64,000 nt of DNA from Candidatus Omnitrophota bacterium (GTDB lineage: Bacteria; Omnitrophota; Gorgyraeia; Gygaellales; Profunditerraquicolaceae), in NCBI GenBank assembly GCA_018895075.1, contig JAHIOW010000066.1, positions 913 through 64,912 on the forward strand, read 5' to 3'. Every line of letters begins with the position of its first letter. Position 1 is the first letter of the stretch. The notes beneath the pieces were generated by a model. It searched no databases. It saw only the letters and a program-made list of their open reading frames with translations, and had not been told where the DNA came from. Of the stretch, positions 5,000 through 58,190 are shown in pieces. A program made the position numbers and the translations under genes.

Positions 5000-5449
5000 T
5001 TATTCCTTATCTTTATAATATCTCTCTATAGCCCCTTTGATATCCGAAGACGTAGAAACAAAGATCTGAACCTTGCAATTAGAAACTAATTCCACGTCCT
5101 CGATTGCCTGTTCATTAAGAGGATTGGACATAGCAATACTGAGATTGTCTTGAATCCTATCTATGGGTACAAGCAGATATTGCCGCGCAACCCTTCCGGG
5201 AATAATATTAATAATTTCATCATCAATCTCATAGTTAGACAATGGTAAATATGGAAAACCGTATTGCATGGTTAAGGCCTTGGCAATATCCTCTTCTTTT
5301 ACGAATCCCAAATCTACCAGTATCTCACCGATAAGACCGTCTTTTTCTTCTTGTAGCTTTAAGGCCTTATCCAGTTGTTGCTGGCTAATCATTCCATCAT
5401 CAATGAGTAACTGGCCTAATTGTTTTTTTCTTATCCTTTTAATTGGCAT
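5000..5449 (-). CDS. Standalone MshEN / T2SSE_N-domain protein (putative c-di-GMP receptor), probable start at Met 5449
   Basis: About 150 aa containing only the GspE N-terminal domain. It has the motif LIGEILVDLGFVKEEDIAKALTMQ (RLGxxLLxxGLLxxxxLxxxLxxQ-like). Starting at the internal Met (MPIKRIRKK) removes the overlap with the upstream gene's stop at 5451. Confidence 0.65.
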   Translation of the reverse strand: MPIKRIRKKQLGQLLIDDGMISQQQLDKALKLQEEKDGLIGEILVDLGFVKEEDIAKALTMQYGFPYLPLSNYEIDDEIINIIPGRVARQYLLVPIDRIQDNLSIAMSNPLNEQAIEDVELVSNCKVQIFVSTSSDIKGAIERYYKDKE

Positions 5450-8766: not shown

Positions 8767-9870
8767 TTAAAATACTGTTCTTGTTCTGTTGATATTCGCC
8801 AATATCCCCAAAGATATAAAAGTTACAAATAGGCATGAACCGCCATAACTGGCCAAAGGCAAAGGCAGGCCTACAACCGGGGCAAGCCCAAAGGTCATGG
8901 CGATATTGATAAAGACCTGAATAACCAACATCAAAGAGATCCCCCAGGCCAATAGTCTACCAAAGTAATCCTGCGTACGCAGGGCAATCTGAATACCTTG
9001 CCTAATTAAAAGATAATATAAAAATAATACTATGATACTCCCTGCCAGGCCCCACTCTTCGGCAAGCGTAGCAAATATAAAGTCAGTATGCGATTCGGGT
9101 AAGAAATGCAGCTGGCTCTGTGTCCCACAAAGCCACCCCTTGCCAAAGATTCCGCCTGAGCCAATGGCAATCTTAGATTGAATTATAGTATAGCCTGCGC
9201 CCAGGGGGTCTATATTAGGATTTAAAAATACTAAGATTCTCTCCTGCTGATAGTCTCTTAAGAAATGCCAGAATACAGGCCCGGAGAATAAGGCAACCAG
9301 CAAAAATATCAGTATGTATCTTAACCTTACCCCCGCAAGATAAAGCATGGCTATAAATATAAAAGATATCAAGACCGCGCTTCCTAAATCTGGCTGTTGT
9401 ATAATCAACCCCATAGGGACAGCTACAAATATAAATGGAAAAAGTAGACCGCGCAATATTCCAAATCTGCTTGCCCTTAGGGAAATATCATCAACTGATT
9501 TCGAACTAAAATATCTTGAGAGAAATATTACAATAATTAATTTTGCCAACTCTGACGGCTGAACATTAAACCAGATAACTCTCAGCCAGCGCTGGGCGCC
9601 TAGACGACTAATCCCCAATACAAATACCAATAATAACAATAATATCATCAAGGCATAGAGGATATATGTAATATCCCAAAGGCGACGATAATTCAAATTA
9701 GACATAATCAGAAAAAAAACCAAGCCTAAGATAACCCATAATATCTGACGTTGATAAATTAGTTCCCAGAATTTACCTTCTTTCTGGTAGGTGCAACTAT
9801 AGATAGAAAGAATGCCGATGGAGGCGATTAAGAGAGCAATTAATAGTATTATAAACTTAGGATTTCGCAT
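8767..9870 (-). CDS. rodA: Rod shape-determining protein RodA (SEDS family peptidoglycan glycosyltransferase)
   Basis: Ten-TM SEDS protein ending GLPLPLASYGGSCLFVTFISLGILANI, immediately downstream of mrdA. Confidence 0.85.
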   Translation of the reverse strand: MRNPKFIILLIALLIASIGILSIYSCTYQKEGKFWELIYQRQILWVILGLVFFLIMSNLNYRRLWDITYILYALMILLLLLVFVLGISRLGAQRWLRVIWFNVQPSELAKLIIVIFLSRYFSSKSVDDISLRASRFGILRGLLFPFIFVAVPMGLIIQQPDLGSAVLISFIFIAMLYLAGVRLRYILIFLLVALFSGPVFWHFLRDYQQERILVFLNPNIDPLGAGYTIIQSKIAIGSGGIFGKGWLCGTQSQLHFLPESHTDFIFATLAEEWGLAGSIIVLFLYYLLIRQGIQIALRTQDYFGRLLAWGISLMLVIQVFINIAMTFGLAPVVGLPLPLASYGGSCLFVTFISLGILANINRTRTVF

Positions 9871-44647: not shown

Positions 44648-45535
44648 CTATGGCCGGGGGTGAAACGTCCGGTGTATTGTCTTAAGCCTATCCTTATTTA
44701 TATGAGTATAAATCTGAGTAGTGGAAATATTAGCGTGCCCAAGCATCTCCTGAACAGAACGTAGGTCTGCTCCCCCTTCCAATAGATGCGTGGCAAAAGA
44801 ATGCCTTAAGGTATGTGGTTTTATTGGTTTCTTAATCCTCGCCTGCCTGGCATATCTTTTTATAATCTTCCATAAAGACTGCCGAGATATTCTTTTTCCA
44901 AAGCGATTTAAAAATAAGAACTCGGATTCTTTTTTCTTTAATAACTGCGGCCGGCTAATCTCTAAATATCGCCTGATGCTGCCTATTGCCTTCTTGCCTA
45001 CGGGAATAACCCGCTCTTTATTGCCCTTGCCGATGCAACGCAAAAACCCTATATTCAAATTGACATTATCCAGTTTTAGATTTACTGCTTCTGATACGCG
45101 CATCCCTGTGGCATAAAACGCCTCGAGAATAGCCTTATCTCTGATACCTTGAGTATCCCTGATATTTGGTTGATTGAGTAATGCCTTTACCTCATTTAAG
45201 GAAAGTGTATCGGGAATCTTTTTCCATAATTTAGGTGAATCTATTAAACTGCTGGGATTATCCTTCAAGAGCCTTTCTCTTACTAAAAACCTATAAAACA
45301 CTTTGACTGCGGCCAATTGACGGGAAATTGAGTTTGTGGATAGGCCTTTATCTTTTTGATAGAGCATAAAATTGGTTATATCATTTCTAGTTGTCTTAGA
45401 TAATGCGTCTTTATTACGGCCGATAAGAAAGCCTATATAGGTACTAAGGTCTCTGCCATAAGCAACAATGGTATTGCCAGCCAGGCCGCGCTCTACAGAT
45501 AAATAATTAAGAAAGGTATCAACCAATTCTCTCAT
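44648..45535 (-). CDS. xerD: Tyrosine site-specific recombinase XerC/XerD
   Basis: R..H..R..Y catalytic residues. C-terminus LRHSFATHLLEGGADLRSVQEMLGHANISTTQIYTH. Confidence 0.85.
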   Translation of the reverse strand: MRELVDTFLNYLSVERGLAGNTIVAYGRDLSTYIGFLIGRNKDALSKTTRNDITNFMLYQKDKGLSTNSISRQLAAVKVFYRFLVRERLLKDNPSSLIDSPKLWKKIPDTLSLNEVKALLNQPNIRDTQGIRDKAILEAFYATGMRVSEAVNLKLDNVNLNIGFLRCIGKGNKERVIPVGKKAIGSIRRYLEISRPQLLKKKESEFLFLNRFGKRISRQSLWKIIKRYARQARIKKPIKPHTLRHSFATHLLEGGADLRSVQEMLGHANISTTQIYTHINKDRLKTIHRTFHPRP

Positions 45536-46157: not shown

Positions 46158-46312
46158 ATTAAATGAGCAGACGACTTATGGAACGCAAGTGAACATAAGT
46201 CGTAGGCGAAGCCGTCTGCGAATTTAACCCCTCACCCAGAAAACCATAGCTTTCTTTGCTGCTGGCTGGGTGAGGGGTAAGTTCGGACTGATAAATTATG
46301 TCGCTTATATCT
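46158..46312. repeat. Member of the mosaic multi-hairpin repeat family (AATGAGCAG stem / GCAA tetraloop / GAATTTAAC / CCCCTCACCCAG..CTGGGTGAGGGG hairpin / TAAGTTCGGAC)
   Basis: attaaatgagcagacgacttatggaacgcaagtgaacataagtcgtaggcgaagccgtctgcgaatttaacccctcacccagaaaaccatagctttctttgctgctggctgggtgaggggtaagttcggac. Confidence 0.65.
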
Positions 46313-48863: not shown

Positions 48864-49136
48864 TCAGAAATCTATCCCAAACCCTTTAAACTCACCCTTG
48901 GCTTCCTGCCACTCTACATCCACATCGTGAATATATCGGGAAAAATATTGATTTAGGCTCTTTAAAAAATCTTTTAAGGCCTCCTCCTGGCCTTCAGCTA
49001 ATACCTCAACCCTGCCATCGCTAAGATTCTTGACCCAACCAGCAATGCCTAAATCATTGGCTATATTCTCTGCGGTAAACCTAAACCCTACTCCCTGAAC
49101 CCTACCGCTATAATATACGTGCATCTGTTTTTTCAT
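48864..49136 (-). CDS. acyP: Acylphosphatase
   Basis: 90 aa with VQGVGFR and GWVKN motifs. Confidence 0.8.
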   Translation of the reverse strand: MKKQMHVYYSGRVQGVGFRFTAENIANDLGIAGWVKNLSDGRVEVLAEGQEEALKDFLKSLNQYFSRYIHDVDVEWQEAKGEFKGFGIDF

Positions 49137-49359
49137 TAGATCAAGTCGCAGTTATTAAACGCAGTGCGAACCTATTTTGAAAAATTGACTACTGAAATCT
49201 AATCTATGTTACCGCGCGCGGAGCGCGCTCCCACATCTCCCGCGCAGTGCTTCAGAGCCAATGGGCAAAATTTTGGGCGGGGGCAATGAAAACCGGTCTA
49301 TTTAAACCTTAGAAAGAACAGGAAAAATTTGCTTTGAATATGTCGCAAAAATGCTACTT

Positions 49360-50292
49360 TTACGACCTCCTCCTTATTAGGTCCGCCTCTCTGCGAAGAT
49401 TGTAGTAAAATCCTCCAAATGCACTCTTTGAACTGAGTCGAAGTCCCAATTTTTCTAATTGGCATTCCACATTAGGCCCAGCTAATGAAACGTCTATCCG
49501 CTTGGTGGGATCCATCTCCAACTCAAAAATACCTTCCCCAAGGTCGCGCCTATACTTAAAATCACCGGCTACGACCGTAGTACGAGTGATGGAAGCTTGT
49601 CCCTCAGTAGACCCCTCTTTAATCCTTTCAACTCTCCCGAACACAATCCCCAGGGGAGCAAGAAGAGATGCCTCATCTACAGAACCTTTGCTCCAGTGTT
49701 CTTCAATCCATTTAGCAATGTCCTTAACCAAAGCCTCCTTCTTGCTCTGCAAAAAAACAAGAAGTGTTTGACGCTCATTGAAGGTTTTAAACACATTGTA
49801 GGCCTCTTTGGAGTCTAATGTTCCATTTGCGAGATACTTGAGATAATCGAGAAACATCAAGCGGGTGGGAGAAATCTCTGTATCCATCACTAAAGCGTTC
49901 ACTACATCTTCACCCTTGGAGAAGTCAACACCATAGAGACGCAACCTTTGTCCATTTGTTACAAGCGCCCACGGAACACTAAGATTGCGAGCATAGCTTA
50001 GTGCTTGCCGGGCTGCAACCTCATCCAAATCTCCTGCTTTTGCTTCGACAACACAAATTGGAGTATCTCCAGACATTAGCGCATAATCAACCTTTTTTGT
50101 TTCGGATCCCATGGTCACTGGAAATTCATGGCGAACAAAATTGGGGTCGGTAGGATCCCAAAGCAAAGCAGTTAATAATGGTTCAATAAGGTATTTCTTT
50201 ACTTCAACCTCTGTCCATTTTTGGAACTGCTCTCTAAACGAGTTGACACGTTCGGCGTACTTTATAAGGTTATCGTTTATTTCTTCGCTCAT
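49360..50292 (-). CDS. PD-(D/E)xK nuclease-superfamily protein (HsdR_N / restriction-endonuclease-like N-terminal domain) with uncharacterized C-terminal domain; higher GC than surroundings
   Basis: VDYALMSGDTPICVVEAKAGDLD contains the D...E-x-K catalytic arrangement typical of the HSDR_N/Mrr fold. By eye the gene is more GC-rich than its flanks. Confidence 0.5.
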   Translation of the reverse strand: MSEEINDNLIKYAERVNSFREQFQKWTEVEVKKYLIEPLLTALLWDPTDPNFVRHEFPVTMGSETKKVDYALMSGDTPICVVEAKAGDLDEVAARQALSYARNLSVPWALVTNGQRLRLYGVDFSKGEDVVNALVMDTEISPTRLMFLDYLKYLANGTLDSKEAYNVFKTFNERQTLLVFLQSKKEALVKDIAKWIEEHWSKGSVDEASLLAPLGIVFGRVERIKEGSTEGQASITRTTVVAGDFKYRRDLGEGIFELEMDPTKRIDVSLAGPNVECQLEKLGLRLSSKSAFGGFYYNLRREADLIRRRS

Positions 50293-50398
50293 TCTGTCTC
50301 CTTGTATTTATTTGAGTGGCCAAACATATACTGGTTTTTCAACCTTAACTTCTCTGCTATCTGCTTGTTGTTGGCATCCTAAAATATGAGCACCTAAT

Positions 50399-50722
50399 TT
50401 ATTTTTTTAGGGTAGGACTGTCTTTTAATCTCCCACCCTGCCAGCCGGTATTTGAAACCTTTACAAAATCATGCAATTTACACTTTGAACAATACAGTTC
50501 AAAAGCAACGGTGAAATCTCTCTTGACCTTAGGGCGATCCTCTTTCGCATATTCAGCCGGCCCTTCATTTACAATACCAAAATCTAAAATCTGCAAGACG
50601 TGAGCGTTTCCACATTTAGAACAGAAGAAATAGAAGTAATCTGTGTCTGTTGTGCCGGTAAGTCTTCCATTACTTATATTCTCTGATCCATGAAAAGGTT
50701 TTCCATTATTGAATTTTTTCAT
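50399..50722 (-). CDS. Small zinc-ribbon protein (two CSKC motifs), hypothetical
   Basis: FFCSKCGNAH ... LYCSKCKLHDF. 107 aa, no known family recognised. Confidence 0.4.
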   Translation of the reverse strand: MKKFNNGKPFHGSENISNGRLTGTTDTDYFYFFCSKCGNAHVLQILDFGIVNEGPAEYAKEDRPKVKRDFTVAFELYCSKCKLHDFVKVSNTGWQGGRLKDSPTLKK

Positions 50723-50780
50723 TTTCCCTCTTAACTTTCCTACTTTCCTTCAAAATGCCACAGAGTTTATCGTCCAATCA

Positions 50781-51146
50781 TTATTTATTCTGCATTTTTA
50801 TATCATATTCTCTTCTGTCTGTGGGCATAGCCGAACCAAAATCCCCCGCTCTGCCGTATTGAACTACTTTTCCATTCTCTAATGTTACCCAAAAATACTC
50901 TCTATCCCCCCAAGTCGAATCCCAAGTAGGATATAGAACATATTCTAAAATTTCTTTATTGGATTGCCCTTTGGAGGAAACGGGAGTTCCCATTATTTTT
51001 ATTACTTCTACCTTAGTCATACCTAAACTTATAAGGTTACTTCTTTTTGTGGTAGCACACCCACACAACCCCATAAGAGAAAGCGTTAATATACAACAAA
51101 GACAAGTCATTACTATTTTGGATATCTTACCCATAACACACCTCAC
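50781..51146 (-). CDS. Lipoprotein with SmpA/OmlA (BamE-like) domain
   Basis: Signal peptide plus lipobox (SLMGLCGC). GMTKVEVIKIMGTPVSS resembles the BamE-fold consensus. Confidence 0.5.
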   Translation of the reverse strand: MRCVMGKISKIVMTCLCCILTLSLMGLCGCATTKRSNLISLGMTKVEVIKIMGTPVSSKGQSNKEILEYVLYPTWDSTWGDREYFWVTLENGKVVQYGRAGDFGSAMPTDRREYDIKMQNK

Positions 51147-51169
51147 TTTTTCTTGCTCTTTATCTCTCC

Positions 51170-51319
51170 TTACCTTTCCACCAGCATCTCTGCCGCCTCT
51201 TCTAGATCTTCCGGAAACACGTCAACATAATACCTCAATGTCGTCGCCACATCTGAATACTCTAAATATTTACTTTTACGAAGCAAAAATTTGGGTGAGT
51301 GCCGTAAGGCACGAACCTT
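51170..51319 (-). pseudogene. Tyrosine recombinase (phage integrase) C-terminal fragment, remnant copy 1
   Basis: Start-less minus-strand frame KVRALRHSPKFLLRKSKYLEYSDVATTLRYYVDVFPEDLEEAAEMLVER*. It matches the integrase C-terminal box (compare the XerD copy in this window, LGHANISTTQIYTHI) including the catalytic Tyr position. Upstream it is truncated by a stop. Confidence 0.55.
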
Positions 51320-51329
51320 TTATGCTGTG

Positions 51330-51806
51330 TTAACCGACGCTCTTTATAAATTCAACCACTCCCCAAATTACCATGAGTGATAACACAAATAAAATAGTAG
51401 CATAAAGAACATAAAACCCCCAGCCCCATAAACGGGTACATAATGTGACCGGGTTTTCAGAGAACCATTCATCGGGAAATACTCTTTTGTTATCAACTAA
51501 CCATTTGTCTAATTCTAACTTCTTTTGAATCTTAACCTGAATATTTCTTGCCGTAAGATAGTTTAAATGACATTTCCCACAGTAATAAATTGTCCAAAGA
51601 TATAATGAAGTTACTACAACCGCCAAAACAATTTTGACCCATAAAAAAGGTATTTCTATTTTGTTTAACAAAAATAATCCGATAAAACCGAAATAAAAGG
51701 CTGATGTAAAAGTAAGTATCCTTATTGGCCAATCTCTATATCTGTTAATCTCTTCGATTAAAGGCGGGTGTATAAGCTTGAGTTTCTCTATATCATTCTC
51801 ATTCAT
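51330..51806 (-). CDS. Hypothetical membrane protein (3-4 TM helices)
   Basis: Hydrophobic segments FTSAFYFGFIGLFLL, IVLAVVVTSLYLWTIYY, FYVLYATILFVLSLMVIWGVV. Flanked by two copies of the integrase-remnant repeat. Confidence 0.45.
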   Translation of the reverse strand: MNENDIEKLKLIHPPLIEEINRYRDWPIRILTFTSAFYFGFIGLFLLNKIEIPFLWVKIVLAVVVTSLYLWTIYYCGKCHLNYLTARNIQVKIQKKLELDKWLVDNKRVFPDEWFSENPVTLCTRLWGWGFYVLYATILFVLSLMVIWGVVEFIKSVG

Positions 51807-51899
51807 TTTATGGATCTCCCTTAAGAATGTCGGCTAACTTCAAATAACCGAACTACTTCGTCTATGCTCCCAAATTGGCATATTTTGCGAAGTATTTTG

Positions 51900-51990
51900 T
51901 CACTTCTGTGCCAGCATCTCTGTTGTCTCTTCTAGATCTTCCGGAAACACATACACATAACGCCTTAACTAATCACGCATCTGAATGTTT
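51900..51990 (-). pseudogene. Tyrosine recombinase C-terminal fragment, remnant copy 2 (frameshifted)
   Basis: LRRYVYVFPEDLEETTEMLAQK*. About 50 nt are near-identical to 51186..51236, and the upstream part is frameshifted relative to copy 1. Confidence 0.45.
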
Positions 51991-52030
51991 TAGATCTTGA
52001 GAATGACCTACCTTAAATTCTTTTGCGATG

Positions 52031-52375
52031 TTATGTAACATCCTTTAGAATTTGTTCCACCTCTGCTTTTAGCGTCGGAATATCTTTTCTTGTCGTAGAC
52101 CAAACTGCATTGATATCTACTCCAAAGTAATCATGAATAAGCTTATCTCGCATTCCTGCTATGTCTTTCCAGGGGATATTGGGGTATTTGTTTCGTATGG
52201 TAGAGGAAATCCTTTTAGCTGCTTCTCCAATGATTTCGGTCTGCCGAATGACCCCGTCTTGAAGAAGCATGGTCTTGGTAAAAGTCTCCTCATTAACCCC
52301 GGAAAGATATCCTTCAATTCTAGCAATCGCATCTAAAATATGCTTTAGGTATATTGTATCATCCCGCTCTTTCAT
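52031..52375 (-). CDS. hepT: HepT-like (DUF86, HEPN) toxin of a HepT/MNT toxin-antitoxin pair
   Basis: R-x4-H-x-Y motif RDKLIHDY. 114 aa, 17-nt overlap with the upstream MNT gene. Confidence 0.8.
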
Positions 52376-52655
52376 AAACTACCTCCATCTCATTTTTAAT
52401 CCTGTCTTTTAAATACGGGCTGATAGAGGCTTCGGTTAATAAATCTGCCTTTCTGCCCAAAACCTCTGAAAGCACTCTTTCAATCCTTACAATATCGAGC
52501 AAACTCTTAGGCTTAGAAAAACGAGCTAAAAGATCAATATCGCTCTCTTCTGTAAAGTCACCTGTTACAAAAGAGCCAAATATTGCCAAGAATACAATGT
52601 CATTATTTTTGCATATTTCGAGTAACTTCTTTTTATTATTAATAGCACCTCTCAT
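52359..52655 (-). CDS. mntA: Minimal nucleotidyltransferase (MNT) antitoxin
   Basis: [17 protein letters not shown] nucleotidyltransferase motif (GS...D.D). 98 aa. Confidence 0.8.
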
Positions 52656-52716
52656 AATCTCCTCTTTTTATCTGATGTTGCTCTCTTTCTCTTCTAAAAA
52701 TCCACCAAGTCAAATC

Positions 52717-52794
52717 TGGTCGGGGAGGTGGGACTTGAACCCACGACCTTTTGGTCCCGAACCAAACGCGCTACCAAACTGCGCTACTCCCCGA
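52717..52794 (-). tRNA. tRNA-Pro (anticodon CGG)
   Basis: Minus-strand sequence TCGGGGAGTAGCGCAGTTTGGTAGCGCGTTTGGTTCGGGACCAAAAGGTCGTGGGTTCAAGTCCCACCTCCCCGACCA. It has a 7-bp acceptor stem, D and T arms, GTTCAAGTCC T-loop, anticodon loop TTCGGGA, encoded CCA, and close similarity to bacterial tRNA-Pro. Confidence 0.85.
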
Positions 52795-52859
52795 ATAATC
52801 ACTTAAATCTTAAATAACTCAAGTATTTTAGATAAGTATAACAGAAATCAGAAAGGTAA

Positions 52860-53107
52860 GCAATAATAATGCTTATTTCGCGGCGAAGTTAACATAAGTG
52901 AGTGCACAATTTATGGAACGACAGTGTCCGCCGAAGGACGGATCAGCCTTCGACTGAAACATAAATTGTCTGCACGAACTTACCCCTCACTCAGAAAACC
53001 ATAGATTTCTTTGCTGCTGGCTGAGTGAGGGGTTAAATTCAGACATACAACTTACGTCATTTCATTCCGTAAGTTGTGTCTTCATTTAACACAAGTTATC
53101 GGAGGTA
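52860..53107. repeat. Mosaic multi-hairpin repeat element, long copy A (between tRNA-Pro and ribE)
   Basis: cataagtgagtgcacaatttatgg...tccgccgaaggacgga...cataaattgtctgcacgaacttac-CCCCTCACTCAG..CTGAGTGAGGGG-ttaaattcagacatacaacttacgtcatttcattccgtaagttgtgtcttcatttaaca. Confidence 0.7.
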
Positions 53108-53677
53108 TTAACTCTTTTGCTTAAGGAGGTCGAATTCGATATTGACCTTATCTGATGGTCCCTTAAACCCAAGGGTAGTGTTTTTAAGGGTGTGCGGAAT
53201 TATATATATACTGAAGGTATTGGATTTTTTCTCTGCAATAGTAAGACTTATCCCATCAACCGCAATAGAGCCCCGGGGTAAAATATACCCTATAAATTTT
53301 GGGGGGAAGGCAATCTCAAAACAAAAATTATTATTAATATAACTTTTCTTACGGATAATCCCTATACAATCAACATGCCCGCTAACAAAATGTCCAGAAA
53401 GCCTGTCCCCTATTCTTAAAGCGCGCTCTAAATTTACCTTATCTCTAATTCTTAATGGCCCTAAATCTGTAATCTCAAGGGTCTTGGGCATAACTTCAAA
53501 ACTTAAGGTATCTTTTTCCTTTTTTATGACCGTAAGGCAGGTACCATTTACAGAAATACTATCGCCGACCCCGGTATCCTCCAGTGTCTTTTCTGCCTTG
53601 ATTTCCAAGAGCGTGACTGCACCCCGCCTAGATATCCTTCTGATTTGGCCTAATTCTTCAACAATCCCACTAAACAT
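53108..53677 (-). CDS. ribE: Riboflavin synthase (alpha subunit)
   Basis: MFSGIVEELGQI... N-terminus (the ORF table starts 4 codons earlier at 53689; Met 53677 fits the family). Duplicated lumazine-binding repeats. Confidence 0.85.
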   Translation of the reverse strand: MFSGIVEELGQIRRISRRGAVTLLEIKAEKTLEDTGVGDSISVNGTCLTVIKKEKDTLSFEVMPKTLEITDLGPLRIRDKVNLERALRIGDRLSGHFVSGHVDCIGIIRKKSYINNNFCFEIAFPPKFIGYILPRGSIAVDGISLTIAEKKSNTFSIYIIPHTLKNTTLGFKGPSDKVNIEFDLLKQKS

Positions 53678-53689
53678 AAGTAAGTGCAC

Positions 53690-53863
53690 AATTTATGGAG
53701 CGAAAGCGTCCGCCGAAGGCGGATCAGCCTGCGGCTGAAACATAACTTATTTGGCCGAACTTACCCCGCACCAATTTGTGATTAATGACGTATCCATTAC
53801 AAATTAGTGCGGGGTTAAATTCAGACATACAACTTACTTCATTTCATTCCGTAAGTTGTGTCT
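53690..53863. repeat. Mosaic multi-hairpin repeat element, long copy B (between ribE and ribD)
   Basis: Collinear with copy A over cataagtaagtgcacaatttatgg...tccgccgaaggcgga...gaacttac and ttaaattcagacatacaacttac(t)tcatttcattccgtaagttgtgtcttcatttaaca. The central hairpin is replaced by CCCCGCACCAATTTGT..ACAAATTAGTGCGGGG. Confidence 0.7.
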
Positions 53864-54961
53864 TCATTTAACATATCCTTCTACTAAGAAATCTCCGCCT
53901 AGGCGTGTTAATTTAACATCTTTTAATTTAACTGCCTTCTCTATCCGCGCTATACCCTTACCCATTACTGAACTAATCGCTTCTTTACCGCCAATAATCT
54001 TGGGGCTTATAAAAAATAACACCTTATCCACAAGGCCCTCATCAAATAAAGAACCGATTAAAGTCCCTCCGCCTTCAACCAGAATATTGCTGATTCCCAT
54101 GCGCGCTAGTTTCTTCATCATATCCTTTAAATTTATCTGTCCTTCTTTCTCTTTCGCTTCTAAAATCCTGGCCTGAGCAGCTAACAATCCCCTATTCTCT
54201 GTTTCCTGGCCGACCTCCTCCGTTAAGGTAACAATGATGACGGAACTATTTTTTGAAAATATTTTTGCCTCCTGCGGAGTGCTCAACTGGCTGTCCACGA
54301 TAATCTTCTGCGGCTGTCGTCTTGAAAACCATGCCTCCAGAGCCGGATTATCCCTTAAAATAGTATTTACACCCACTATTATGGCATCATAATTTTGACG
54401 CAAGCGGTGGGCATAAGTACGCGCCTTATCTGAAGTTATCCATTTAGAATCAGCGGTCTTAGTGGCAATCTTACCGTCTAAAGATTGGGCTACTTTGACT
54501 GTAACAAAGGGCACCCTTTGAGTAATATATTTTATAAAGACCTCGTTCTGCGCCTTTAATTTGTCTTCTAAGAAGCCCACCTTCACTTTGATCCCGTGTT
54601 GCCTAAGCATATTGATTGCGCCTCCATTAGTTAGAGGATTAGGATCAATCATGCCTATTATAACTTCTCTTATTCCACTCCTTACAATTTTATCCACGCA
54701 AGGCGGGGTCTTGCCGAAATGTACACAGGGCTCCAGCGTCACATACAAAGTAGCGCCTTTTGCAAGTCTTCCTGCATCATCTAAAGCAATTGCCTCTGCA
54801 TGAGCAAGGCCTGCCTTATGATGATAGCCTCGGCCTACAACGCGGCCATTCTTTACTATCATGGCGCCTACCAGAGGATTAGGATAAGTCTGACCTTTTG
54901 CTTTTTCAGCCAGCCTCATTGCCAGGTTCATAAAGTAGACGTGGTCTTTTTTATATTTCAT
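53864..54961 (-). CDS. ribD: Bifunctional diaminohydroxyphosphoribosylaminopyrimidine deaminase / 5-amino-6-(5-phosphoribosylamino)uracil reductase
   Basis: Deaminase motifs HAEAIAL and PCVHFGKTPPC. C-terminal reductase domain. Start is probably Met 54961 (MKYKKDHVYFMNLA), giving a 4-nt overlap with the upstream gene rather than the 55054 start in the ORF table. Confidence 0.85.
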   Translation of the reverse strand: MKYKKDHVYFMNLAMRLAEKAKGQTYPNPLVGAMIVKNGRVVGRGYHHKAGLAHAEAIALDDAGRLAKGATLYVTLEPCVHFGKTPPCVDKIVRSGIREVIIGMIDPNPLTNGGAINMLRQHGIKVKVGFLEDKLKAQNEVFIKYITQRVPFVTVKVAQSLDGKIATKTADSKWITSDKARTYAHRLRQNYDAIIVGVNTILRDNPALEAWFSRRQPQKIIVDSQLSTPQEAKIFSKNSSVIIVTLTEEVGQETENRGLLAAQARILEAKEKEGQINLKDMMKKLARMGISNILVEGGGTLIGSLFDEGLVDKVLFFISPKIIGGKEAISSVMGKGIARIEKAVKLKDVKLTRLGGDFLVEGYVK

Positions 54962-55779: not shown

Positions 55780-56209
55780 CGGTTTTTCTTTCTAATTTTA
55801 CTTTATCCAGAATGCCATTGACGAATTTGGATGCCTCCAGGCTAGAGTATTTTTTGGCAAGCTCCACTGCCTCATTTATAGAGACTTTGAGAGGGATATC
55901 GTGACAAAACATAAGTTCAAAACTCCCCAGGCGTAATATATTCTTATCTACAACTGCGATACGCGACAGTTGCCAGTTAGTAGCATATTGACTGATCTTT
56001 ATATCAATTTTTTCTAAATTGCCTCTAACTCCTTTGACAAGTTGAGAAGTGAAATTCTTCACCTCCTCTTCTATATTCTCTTTAGCCTGCGCCTGCCAGA
56101 AATTACTCAAAGAAACTTCATAGCTGTCCTGGGAGATATCCATCTGGTAAAGAATCTGTAAGGCAAATTCACGCGCCTTTGTACGTTTACGCATATTTAA
56201 TGAGCGCAT
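55766..56209 (-). CDS. nusB: Transcription antitermination factor NusB
   Basis: KAREFALQILYQMDI N-terminus, all-helical NusB fold, in rib context. Confidence 0.85.
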   Translation of the reverse strand: MRSLNMRKRTKAREFALQILYQMDISQDSYEVSLSNFWQAQAKENIEEEVKNFTSQLVKGVRGNLEKIDIKISQYATNWQLSRIAVVDKNILRLGSFELMFCHDIPLKVSINEAVELAKKYSSLEASKFVNGILDKVKLERKTDEIC

Positions 56210-56276
56210 AACTTACGGAATGAAATGACGTAAGTTATATGCGCGAATTTAATCCGCCGAAGGCGGATATCCATAT
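56210..56276. repeat. Short mosaic repeat element (GCGCATAACTTACG-GAATGAAATGA-CGTAAGTTAT hairpin plus GAATTTAA-TCCGCCGAAGGCGGA)
   Basis: The loop GAATGAAATGA is the reverse complement of the loop TCATTTCATTC in copies A and B. The stems covary (GCGCATAACTTACG vs GACATACAACTTACG). Confidence 0.6.
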
Positions 56277-56929: not shown

Positions 56930-58150
56930 TTATATTTTTAAATAGTGGCCTAATTTTTCTTTTTTAGTCTTAAGGTACCGGTAATTTAAGGGATTAGGTT
57001 TGATCTCTAAAGGAATACGTTCAACGACGTTGAGGCCATAACCTTTTAATCCTACGATCTTGCGTGGATTATTAGTAAGAAGCCTGATATTCTTAATCCC
57101 TAAATCCACCAAAATCTGCGCCCCTATCCCGTAATCCCGCAAGTCCGGCTTGTGCCCTAAGGCCTCATTTGCCTGGATCGTATCTAATCCTTTATCTTGT
57201 AAACCATAGGCGCGGATTTTATCGATCAGCCCAATACCGCGGCCTTCCTGGCTCATATAAAGAATGGCTCCTTTCTTCTCTCTTGCGATAATCTCCATAG
57301 CCTTCTTCAGTTGCCTCCCGCAATCACAACGTAAAGAACCAAATACATCACCGGTAAGGCATTCAGAATGTACACGCACCAACACTGCCGGATCGCCTAA
57401 TTCGCCCATTGTCAGGGCAATATGAAAATGGTTATTGGTTAGGTCTCGATATAAAATTAATTTGAATGTTCCGAATTCTGTGGGAATAACTGTTTCAGAA
57501 ATCCTCTCAATCAATTTTTCAATCTGCCTTCGGTATTGAATAATGTCAGCGATAGAACAAATCTTTAGATTATGCTGCTGGGCAAAACCAAGTAGCTGTT
57601 TAAGCCTTGCCATTGTGCCATCGTCATTCATAATCTCGCATATTACGCCCGCAGGATAAAGTCCACACAAGCGCATCAGGTCTACTGTTGCCTCGGTATG
57701 ACCTGCCCTGACCAAAACACCGCCTTTCTGTGCTTTTAAAGGAAAGATATGGCCTGGACGAATAAGGTCATCGGGTTTGCTCTGAGTATCAATGAGCGCC
57801 TCTATGGTCCTGGCGCGATCATAGGCAGAAATACCTGTAGTGATTCCTCTGGCAGCGTCTACTGATACTATCCAGGCAGTAGAGAAAGGGTCTTTTATAT
57901 TTGGTGTTCTTTTATCTCTGACCATTGCCTGTAAAGACAACTCATTTAATCTTTGTTCTTCCATCGGCACACAAATGAGCCCTCTGCCACTCTTAGCCAT
58001 AAAATTTATATCTTCCGGCCTAACAAAGGAAGCGGCCATTACCAGGTCACCTTCGTTCTCGCGGTCCTGGTCATCCGCCACAATAACCATTCGGCCTGAT
58101 TTCAAATCCTCTAGTATCTCTGGAATAGAATTAAACATAAGTGAGTGCAC
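56930..58150 (-). CDS. ribBA: Bifunctional 3,4-dihydroxy-2-butanone-4-phosphate synthase / GTP cyclohydrolase II
   Basis: DHBP synthase motif DRENEGDLVMAA. GTP cyclohydrolase II zinc cysteines (ECLTGD...CDCG). Confidence 0.9.
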   Translation of the reverse strand: MHSLMFNSIPEILEDLKSGRMVIVADDQDRENEGDLVMAASFVRPEDINFMAKSGRGLICVPMEEQRLNELSLQAMVRDKRTPNIKDPFSTAWIVSVDAARGITTGISAYDRARTIEALIDTQSKPDDLIRPGHIFPLKAQKGGVLVRAGHTEATVDLMRLCGLYPAGVICEIMNDDGTMARLKQLLGFAQQHNLKICSIADIIQYRRQIEKLIERISETVIPTEFGTFKLILYRDLTNNHFHIALTMGELGDPAVLVRVHSECLTGDVFGSLRCDCGRQLKKAMEIIAREKKGAILYMSQEGRGIGLIDKIRAYGLQDKGLDTIQANEALGHKPDLRDYGIGAQILVDLGIKNIRLLTNNPRKIVGLKGYGLNVVERIPLEIKPNPLNYRYLKTKKEKLGHYLKI

Positions 58151-58190
58151 AATTTACAGAACGCAAGTGAATGTAAATTGTCTGCTCATT

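Follow-up and report, generated by a model that had tools for sequence, protein, structure and literature searches.

What is the block of non-core genes that lies between a tRNA-Pro(CGG) gene and acyP in a 64-kb stretch of the Candidatus Omnitrophota contig JAHIOW010000066.1 (the whole stretch is hereafter called the window), and how was it assembled? The original prediction, made from the letters of the sequence, saw a decayed island, integrated at the tRNA gene by an integrase that had since been destroyed. The evidence presented here favours a different answer, to which we assign a probability of about 0.6: positions 49342–52716 are an array of gene cassettes that derives from a mobile element and was inserted into the chromosome directly 3′ of tRNA-Pro(CGG). 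It is best read as a stranded member of an array family found on plasmid-like elements in groundwater Omnitrophota and characterised by a small tyrosine recombinase (rec), repeated copies of the 3′ end of its gene (R) and a hairpin element (H).

The six open reading frames (ORFs), the tRNA gene, the two recombinase-tail fragments and the flanking acyP-ligA and ribE genes were all found where they had originally been placed. The features of the locus are as follows.

53689..53108, minus strand: ribE, just outside the block.
52794–53107: spacer between ribE and the tRNA gene, 314 nucleotides (nt).
52717–52793, minus strand: tRNA-Pro(CGG), detected by ARAGORN and by the Rfam tRNA model (70.7 bits).
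52695..52716, minus strand: post-tRNA flank GATTTGACTTGGTGGATTTTTA, 22 nt, a candidate for the element-side junction.
52359..52655, minus strand: MNT, gene for a predicted MntA-like nucleotidyltransferase antitoxin, the first gene of cassette 1.
52031..52375, minus strand: HepT, gene for a predicted HEPN RNase toxin (ORF and Pfam match).
52018..52030, minus strand: probable half-H arm CATCGCAAAAGAA, directly 3′ of the HepT stop codon; a weak match taken alone.
51902..51995, minus strand: R2, a frameshifted relic of the rec 3′ end at the junction of cassettes 1 and 2 (nhmmer profile).
51330..51806, minus strand: gene for a predicted membrane protein of 158 amino acids (aa), cassette 2 (ORF, no family match).
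51274..51332, minus strand: E59, a 59-nt conserved non-coding element that begins at the stop codon of the 158-aa gene.
51170..51269, minus strand: R1, a relic of the rec 3′ end at the junction of cassettes 2 and 3 (nhmmer profile).
50781..51146, minus strand: gene for a putative lipoprotein of 121 aa, with a likely start ATG at 51134.
50399..50722, minus strand: gene for a zinc-ribbon protein of 107 aa with two CxxC motifs (Pfam Cys_rich_KTR).
49360..50292, minus strand: gene for a predicted stand-alone PD-(D/E)xK nuclease of 310 aa, HsdR_N type (Pfam HSDR_N_2).
49342..49366, minus strand: H hairpin GTCGTAAAAG-TAGCA-TTTTTGCGAC, at the distal array end, where it overlaps the stop codon of the nuclease gene.
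49137..49341, minus strand: spacer before acyP, 205 nt, with a G+C-rich hairpin.
49136..48864, minus strand: acyP, followed by ligA, just outside the block.

All genes from ligA through ribBA lie on the minus strand. Read in that direction, the array covers 3.4 kb, begins immediately 3′ of the native chromosomal tRNA gene and runs in the order tRNA-Pro, MNT-HepT, R2, 158-aa gene, R1, lipoprotein, zinc-ribbon and nuclease genes, H. R2 and R1 are direct repeats, 730 nt apart, that flank the 158-aa gene. The array comprises at least three units, namely the MNT-HepT pair, the 158-aa gene with its 59-nt tail, and the lipoprotein, zinc-ribbon and nuclease genes, which may themselves be more than one unit. 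From the tRNA gene to acyP the distance is 3.58 kb, and from the nuclease ORF to acyP it is 223 nt.

The two R copies have an exact 24-mer in common (chance expectation 0.00 matches), and over 58 nt their identity is 84%. R1 is open for 38–49 codons, has no credible start, and its translation ends ...YLEYSDVATTLRYYVDVFPEDLEEAAEMLVER, i.e., ...YSDVATTLRYYVDVFPEDLEEAAEMLVER. R2 is frameshifted because of a 2-nt deletion, after which it reads ...HSDA/LRRYVYVFPEDLEETTEMLAQK*. A profile of the rec 3′ end, applied with nhmmer to the whole window, finds only R1 (51269..51170, E 1.1e-28, profile positions 28–127) and R2 (51995..51902, E 2.4e-15, profile positions 30–125). Additional degenerate copies, suspected by eye between the zinc-ribbon and nuclease genes or just after the tRNA gene, gave no match to the profile at E ≤ 10 and were rejected.

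The peptide of either fragment (31–49 aa), searched alone, matches nothing meaningful in Pfam, NCBIfam or PDB, and its homology becomes visible only via longer relatives. In a collection of 5.8 billion proteins, the R peptide matches 40 proteins of 26–83 aa, which have a near-invariant tail, GHSDVATTLRYYVDVFPEDLEEAAEMLAE[KR], behind varied N-termini. Two of the 40 carry PF00589 and reach back to ...SPHALRHTVGTRLL...LGHSDV, corresponding to box II of tyrosine recombinases; the longer R relatives show the HxLRH...LGHS..TT..Y box, and a family member of 80 aa leads to 15,946 recombinase relatives, including a full-length representative of 205 aa. Since the longer relatives carry PF00589 and box II, and full-length rec itself scores 2e-33 against PF00589, R1 and R2 are real tyrosine-recombinase C-termini, and a failure of the fragments to align to integrase C-termini, which would have spoken against the original prediction, was not seen. 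They were, on the other hand, described as duplicated integrase remnants, and this does not hold: at the nucleotide level, R1 shares 91% identity with a copy from a different genome (L081; loci fetched for comparison carry L numbers) and less with R2, arguing against a local duplication. The description of R1 and R2 as integrase pseudogenes is right as to their ancestry, but they are the standard inter-cassette junctions of an array family rather than the one-off decay of an island integrase.

A scan of metagenomes with the conserved R DNA as a 3′-end probe gave 42 loci, holding 24 intact rec genes (about 206 aa) and at least 18 truncated relics. In the product of 205–206 aa, PF00589 spans residues 7–191, so that rec has the catalytic domain alone, with no room for the usual N-terminal core-binding domain. 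The gene directly follows that of a TrfA-like replication initiator, itself preceded by a ParA-type ATPase gene and a small ORF. Cargo begins at the rec stop codon and consists of short, diverse genes, all on the rec strand, that are divided by 5′-truncated rec tails. Related backbones are 88–90% identical in pairs up to this stop codon; L090 and L102, for example, are 90% identical to the rec stop and unrelated beyond it, and the same is true of L090 and L120. The relics are all on the rec strand and all end at the stop codon (profile positions 121–127), while their 5′ ends range from profile position 1 to 76, with 8 of 18 at positions 33–43. A search with the full-length protein, which is free of probe bias, found that extra copies within the loci are always 3′ fragments and never 5′ ones. 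Relics stand at every cassette border in at least eight arrays, and the same cassettes occur in different orders.

The cargo behind rec, of which only part was scanned against family libraries, includes toxin-antitoxin pairs, small membrane proteins, methyltransferases, an AAA_15/AAA_21 ATPase and a DUF262-like protein. Likely defence genes among it are a 794-aa protein with a DUF262-like partner of 411 aa, an N6_N4 methylase with a partner of 385 aa, the AAA_15/AAA_21 ATPase and TIR-like-looking small ORFs (loci L116/L118, 761–4407; L133, 1786–3741; L090, 6923–9223; L083, 646–1615). A viral origin was rejected, as IMG/VR gave no matches.

Two cassettes were found at different positions in different arrays. 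Cassette A, encoding proteins of 159 and 56 aa, is 95.9% identical over 734 nt between L091 and L103; it is first after rec in L091, lies behind another cassette in L103, and has unrelated flanks in the two. The shared stretch begins at R position 76 (GTGTTTCC, where the codons of YYVD|VFPEDL are divided), spans both genes and stops near position 69 of the following R. In L091 cassette B occupies the second place, and in L123 the first. With it moves an unusual right half of R, whose reading frame is extended; in L123 this half supplies the C-terminal end of rec. The left half of R downstream of cassette B is truncated at the same point in both loci. In each junction, the left half thus goes with the unit before it and the right half with the unit after it, as would be expected if reciprocal site-specific exchange took place within R.

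Three units of the window array also recur elsewhere, in other contexts and at 89–95% nucleotide identity; those with the 158-aa gene and the nuclease are described below. For MNT-HepT, the half-H arm and the left half of R, L104 and L113 show a nucleotide identity of 93–95%, and the sequence after the R stop codon differs among the window, L104 and L113. In both of these other genomes the MNT-HepT-R unit directly follows a tRNA-Pro gene, in this case tRNA-Pro(GGG).

Short G+C-rich palindromes, of the GCCTGCCGGCAGGC type or the GGCTTTGGC...GCCAAACC type, interrupt non-coding R copies precisely where ...TATGTGGAT meets GTGTTTCC. They were seen at R position 76 in L082, L103, L104, L106, L113, L117 and L123, and in none of the intact rec genes. 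Palindromes of this type are also present in other intergenic DNA of Omnitrophota, and in L074 one lies just after tRNA-Pro.

These comparisons suggest how the arrays might be built. The rec protein would recombine two R sites, with the crossover near the codon boundary YYVD|VFPEDL, and a circular cassette would carry a joined R. On insertion, the cassette would donate the last ~17 codons to its upstream neighbour, including rec itself, and its own left half would be left downstream. This would be an integron-like logic, with the site inside the coding end of the recombinase gene. We offer, as a tentative proposal held at a little below even odds, that R is the working site of a hitherto undescribed, integron-like gene-capture platform, in which the 206-aa rec on TrfA/ParA plasmids inserts and excises cassettes within its own last ~17–30 codons, cassettes replace the C-terminus of the enzyme, H closes the arrays, and chromosomal off-shoots such as the one beside tRNA-Pro could still be mobilised in trans by a plasmid-borne rec. 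A search of the window with the full-length rec protein found no full-length rec, and there is no plasmid backbone at the array, which would be stranded unless rec were supplied in trans. The anatomy of the array, its homologies, its lack in relatives and the reappearance of its units in other settings are direct observations; catalysis by rec, the crossover point and the route by which the array reached tRNA-Pro are inferred. The sole full-length tyrosine recombinase in the window is a 295-aa ORF (44648–45535, minus strand), which aligns with rec over 150 aa at 27% identity and probably represents the chromosomal enzyme of the XerC/D type.

The H element consists of a hairpin, GTCGCAAAAG-N5-CTTTTGCGAC, then a conserved spacer of ~55 nt, then a third copy of the arm, whose consensus is GTCGCAAAAG. 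Motif search and alignment place it, in 24 loci, on the rec strand, downstream of the last R, where it follows a cargo stop codon without a gap. Order and polarity are the same in the window (R2, R1, H), with the conserved right part of H replaced by unrelated sequence. At the position of the probable half-H arm after HepT, L104 and L113 have CGTCGCAAAAGAA. Inspected by eye, H has CAAC...GTTG ends yet is a perfect 25-nt hairpin, and R is not a hairpin. An Rfam scan gave no match for the H or R elements, and no canonical R″/L″–L′/R′ attC was seen by eye.

In L081–L124, H contains three copies of a 10–13-nt arm (one inverted, two direct) within ~110–130 nt, for example at 5090–5200 of L091 (oriented coordinates), and occurs essentially once per array; the layout resembles that of arm-type binding sites or iterons. 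The possibility that the right flank of H is a reversed tRNA 3′ end was rejected, as the Rfam tRNA model found no partial tRNA in nine loci at E ≤ 1. The only match was a sub-threshold one to ctRNA_pGA1, on the hairpin.

A second non-coding element, E59, is shared with other loci. Copies 88–97% identical to it follow a homologue of the 158-aa gene (L133, L134) and homologues of the nuclease gene (L126, L130–L132). It has a GTGCC...GGCAC stem, and the cargo genes whose stop codons mark its start are unrelated (the 158-aa gene, nuclease homologues, a methylase); this conservation is retained although the adjacent nuclease homologues have only ~68% protein identity to the window nuclease. Copies lie at 8965–9017 in L130, 1839–1897 and 3543–3563 in L131, 1797–1855 in L132 and 4419–4462 in L133, and E59 has no Rfam match.

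That the block is an insertion can be seen from related genomes, of which the nearest species representatives are distant (LigA identity of 72% or less). The order ribBA-ribH-nusB-PHP-ribD-ribE ... tRNA-Pro(CGG) ... acyP-ligA is kept in 12 relatives, and none of the six island genes is present at the locus in any of the 12. The block is therefore an insertion, as the original prediction held in calling it non-core, and relatives with the same genes in the same place were not found. The ribE-to-acyP interval ranges from 529 to 6933 nt in the relatives, and the tRNA gene is only 6–24 nt from acyP in several of them. Between acyP and ligA, most relatives (L001, L002, L004, L005, L012, L013, L073 and L074) have a gap of ~740–970 nt, room for one gene; no such gap parts acyP from ligA in the window, L003, L006, L008 or L017, where they are neighbours; L003, L008 and L012 have extra DNA upstream, not downstream, of the tRNA gene. 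Such variable gaps on both sides of tRNA/acyP make the whole ribE-tRNA-Pro-acyP-ligA interval a hot spot.

On the tRNA side, about the first 19–20 nt of the flank GATTTGACTTGGTGGATTTTTA are common to L104, where they follow the different tRNA-Pro(GGG); the flank is partly shared with L004, and it is absent in relatives without an insertion. A direct repeat of the tRNA-Pro 3′ end, which had been anticipated as an att core between the borders of the block, was not found: searches of the window with a 25-mer and a 16-mer, allowing up to 3 mismatches, matched only the tRNA gene itself. The idea of a tRNA-targeted element thus keeps its plausibility from the MNT-HepT-R units after tRNA-Pro(GGG) in two genomes, but lacks the att repeat. 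The 205-nt spacer before acyP has no blastn match in any fetched locus. Within it (49200–49290) is a CCCCCGCCCAAAATTTT stretch that, by eye, resembles the tRNA-Pro end plus flank at 12 of 18 positions, which is not significant; near 49270–49290, this look-alike is the sole candidate for a distal att remnant. The spacer also holds a G+C-rich hairpin, GCGCGGGAG...CTCCGCGCGC.

The composition of the block is mixed. The nuclease gene, said to be visibly higher in G+C than its flanks, does have a higher content (0.441 against a core-gene mean of 0.394, z +1.9), but the excess is modest and lies inside the core range of 0.353–0.465. In codon usage it departs further from the norm than any other gene of the window (z −2.4). 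An unusual richness in AT marks the 158-aa gene, whose G+C content is 0.329 (z −2.7).

The ribE-tRNA spacer, on the other side of the tRNA gene, is strongly structured (minimum free energy −94 kcal/mol) and belongs to an intergenic repeat family, with copies 70–86% identical between other rib/nusB genes and near a gene of the metallo-beta-lactamase fold. Copies within the window are at 53673–53873, 46159–46302, 56196–56255 and 58128–58169, and weaker ones were seen in the relatives L002, L005 and L073.

The gene pair next to the tRNA gene was correctly recognised as HepT/MNT. MNT matches Pfam NTP_transf_2 (1.6e-17) and the PADLOC candidate PDC-S09 (2e-21), and its GSx10DxD motif is readable in the sequence; HepT matches Pfam HepT-like (1.9e-29) and contains RDKLIH, an Rx4H motif; the two genes overlap by 17 nt. 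As in the known type VII HepT/MntA systems, the MNT gene overlaps a downstream HEPN gene, both motifs are present and the Pfam matches are strong. The NCBIfam equivalogs score below their cut-off of 60 (HepT 37.3 bits; MntA 50.9 bits, 1.2e-13), which marks the pair as a divergent member of type VII. Amino acid identity to the homologues is 95% (L104) and 89% (L113) for MNT, and 94% (L104) and 89% (L113) for HepT. It is likely to be a type VII toxin-antitoxin pair serving stabilisation or abortive defence.

The presence of an HsdR_N-like PD-(D/E)xK motif in the 310-aa protein is likewise well founded. Residues 53–126 match HSDR_N_2 (7.7e-9), and D69, E83 and K85 are invariant in 31 homologues. 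In the AlphaFold2 (AF2) model (pLDDT 86.6), the N-terminal domain resembles the HsdR fragment 3h1t (Foldseek, E 2.6e-4) and also matches 3s1s and 4r5q (BpuSI, Cas4); for the helical middle and C-terminal domain, i.e., the C-terminal 170 aa, Foldseek gave no fold match. Full-length homologues number 73, at 45–92% identity. The closest, in L125 (92% protein, 95% nucleotide identity), stands alone between an R relic and a complete H. Neighbours of the nuclease homologues include HicAB, ParE/Phd, ThaI with an N6/N4 methylase, Vsr with Dcm, SLFN_AlbA_2 and DUF4062, in different core contexts, and a restriction-like defence role therefore fits. The protein is likely to be a restriction-like DNA nuclease, as far as the domain matches and the model indicate. 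It recalls the stand-alone HsdR_N/COG2810 proteins annotated as predicted type IV restriction endonucleases, with which it shares an N-terminal PD-(D/E)xK domain as in type I HsdR and defence-island neighbourhoods; it differs in its C-terminal region and in lacking a helicase or motor domain, and the window offers it no methyltransferase partner.

The remaining proteins are less distinctive. The 107-aa protein, described as a two-CxxC zinc ribbon, has both motifs and scores just above the cut-off for Cys_rich_KTR (8.7e-6; 25.9 bits against 25.5). The 121-aa protein has a readable signal peptide and a lipobox-like LCGC, so that a lipoprotein is credible, but its likeness to BamE is weak and below the Pfam cut-off (5e-4; OsmE 0.0025). 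The 158-aa gene has no family match in the libraries scanned (Pfam, PADLOC). Its homologue in L133 is 87% identical (gene plus E59, 89%) and lies there behind a full-length rec and an ATPase gene, in front of H. PADLOC gave the nuclease only weak partial matches (PDC-M54B 1.2e-4, REase_I 6e-4) and the 107-, 121- and 158-aa proteins none. A link to defence, judged from Pfam, PADLOC and gene neighbourhoods, thus applies to MNT/HepT and the nuclease only. Nor is the cargo a single small defence or stress module, as had been suggested, because homologues of the nuclease and of the 158-aa protein occur without their window neighbours. The lipoprotein, zinc-ribbon and nuclease genes were considered as a conserved module and rejected, the other two genes being missing from eight nuclease-homologue loci. 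A scan for promoters and terminators gave counts no different from shuffled sequence.

Several observations count against an array assembled by rec. The loci were gathered with a 3′-end probe, which introduces an ascertainment bias. The R region of rec (0.20–0.28) shows no reduction in synonymous diversity relative to other parts of the gene (0.19–0.43), so there is no independent sign of DNA-level constraint on R, in a test that the probe confounds in part. The crossover point is placed from two cassette pairs, and the left border of cassette A in L103 coincides with a hairpin insertion, so that this border would look alike under other models. No recombination product was seen, either as a circular cassette or as an empty site in a near-identical background. 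In the window, the att repeat is absent and the acyP-side junction undefined; the left half of R2 is ~70% identical to that of L104, though the adjoining genes are ~94% identical; and by profile search no R divides the lipoprotein, zinc-ribbon and nuclease genes. In L133, no R right half precedes the 158-aa gene. Finally, the varied 5′ ends of the relics also fit plain decay by deletion.

The absence of a product, the reliance on two cassette pairs, the probe bias and the undefined acyP junction keep one alternative alive, unlikely as we consider it. One or two elements could have entered the 3′ end of tRNA-Pro by means of their own integrases, and later deletions could have left functionless tails. 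The position of the block directly at the tRNA 3′ end, its absence in relatives and the MNT-HepT-R units after tRNA-Pro in two other genomes are all in keeping with this, as are the variable relic 5′ ends, which deletions would give, and the lack of extra synonymous constraint in R. It does not account for relics that, when found without probe bias, are always 3′ and never 5′, or that stand at every border of at least eight arrays in which the same cassettes are reordered. Moreover, no att repeat was found, R1 is nearer to foreign copies than to R2, and the parent of the relics is a plasmid-linked recombinase of 206 aa beside a Rep gene, not an island integrase of ~400 aa.

It is improbable that R, H and E59 are dispersed repeats, whether similar to miniature inverted-repeat transposable elements (MITEs) or repetitive extragenic palindromes (REPs) or spread by homologous recombination or gene conversion between plasmid and chromosome, with the cargo reshuffled by general recombination. 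These genomes are full of small hairpin repeats, some of them inside R, another repeat family fills the rib intergenic regions, and left-half and right-half variants of R are, by inspection, only partly linked. Dispersed repeats would, however, hardly keep a single orientation relative to rec and H, or always end at a stop codon, as R does, and no R occurs away from cargo arrays in the window or in 80 ligA loci. An ancestral core region, merely variable and without mobile origin, is very improbable, for although the ribE-tRNA-Pro-acyP interval varies in all relatives and holds ordinary-looking genes (fab, sensor kinases), the island genes are absent from all relatives examined, their nearest homologues (87–95%) are in unrelated contexts, and recombinase relics are present.

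If the region is a gene-cassette array, as preferred here, its closest likeness among known systems is to integrons and clusters of attC sites lacking integron-integrases (CALINs). Short same-strand cassettes, mostly without promoters of their own, are split by a repeated sequence that resembles a recombination site; cassettes are reordered between arrays and carry toxin-antitoxin and defence genes; the first cassette abuts the recombinase locus; and orphan arrays without a recombinase exist. The differences are substantial: rec has 206 aa and the catalytic domain alone, against ~320 aa and an extra domain in IntI; the repeated site is the last ~30 codons of rec itself, against an attI upstream of the gene and a folded attC; no canonical attC was seen; and the platform lies behind a TrfA-like Rep. 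Islands at tRNA genes with P4-type integrases are alike in being exactly at the tRNA 3′ end, absent from relatives and of mixed composition, with toxin-antitoxin and restriction-like cargo and recombinase remnants. They are unlike the window array in that the latter has neither a direct repeat of the tRNA end nor a full integrase, and its remnants, which separate cargo genes instead of adjoining the tRNA gene, derive from a small recombinase of the plasmid type.

In the composite staphylococcal cassette chromosome (SCC) islands of staphylococci, elements insert serially at the 3′ end of rlmH (orfX), and the modules are bounded by repeats of that end while the gene stays intact; the recombinases (Ccr) are large serine recombinases and the target is a housekeeping gene, whereas the arrays described here seem to use the recombinase gene itself as their target. 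The archaeal integrases of the SSV type (Sulfolobus spindle-shaped virus) have attP inside int, so that integration splits and inactivates the gene, and the core is tRNA sequence. The site is within the integrase coding sequence in both cases, but here it is at the extreme 3′ end and the gene would be rebuilt each time. The pdif modules of Acinetobacter plasmids are small, often encode toxin-antitoxin systems and occur in many contexts, bounded by short host XerC/XerD sites in alternating orientation; the sites described here differ in being direct repeats derived from a dedicated recombinase gene.

A search of the literature for an integron of Omnitrophota, or for a cassette system with its site inside the recombinase gene, found nothing specific. 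To our knowledge, integrons are the only well-described case of a recombinase that assembles arrays of promoterless cassettes. Should the proposed mechanism prove wrong, what remains is a decayed island whose cargo is ordinary. If it is right, the arrays would represent a distinct cassette-capture system, and such capture would have evolved more than once: this would be a second, unrelated solution with a minimal recombinase, on plasmids of a phylum that is poorly known and for the most part uncultured. Gene flow in groundwater Omnitrophota, including that of toxin-antitoxin and restriction-type defence genes, would become easier to approach, and short 'integrase' stubs in such genomes would mark the borders of cassettes, not dead prophages.

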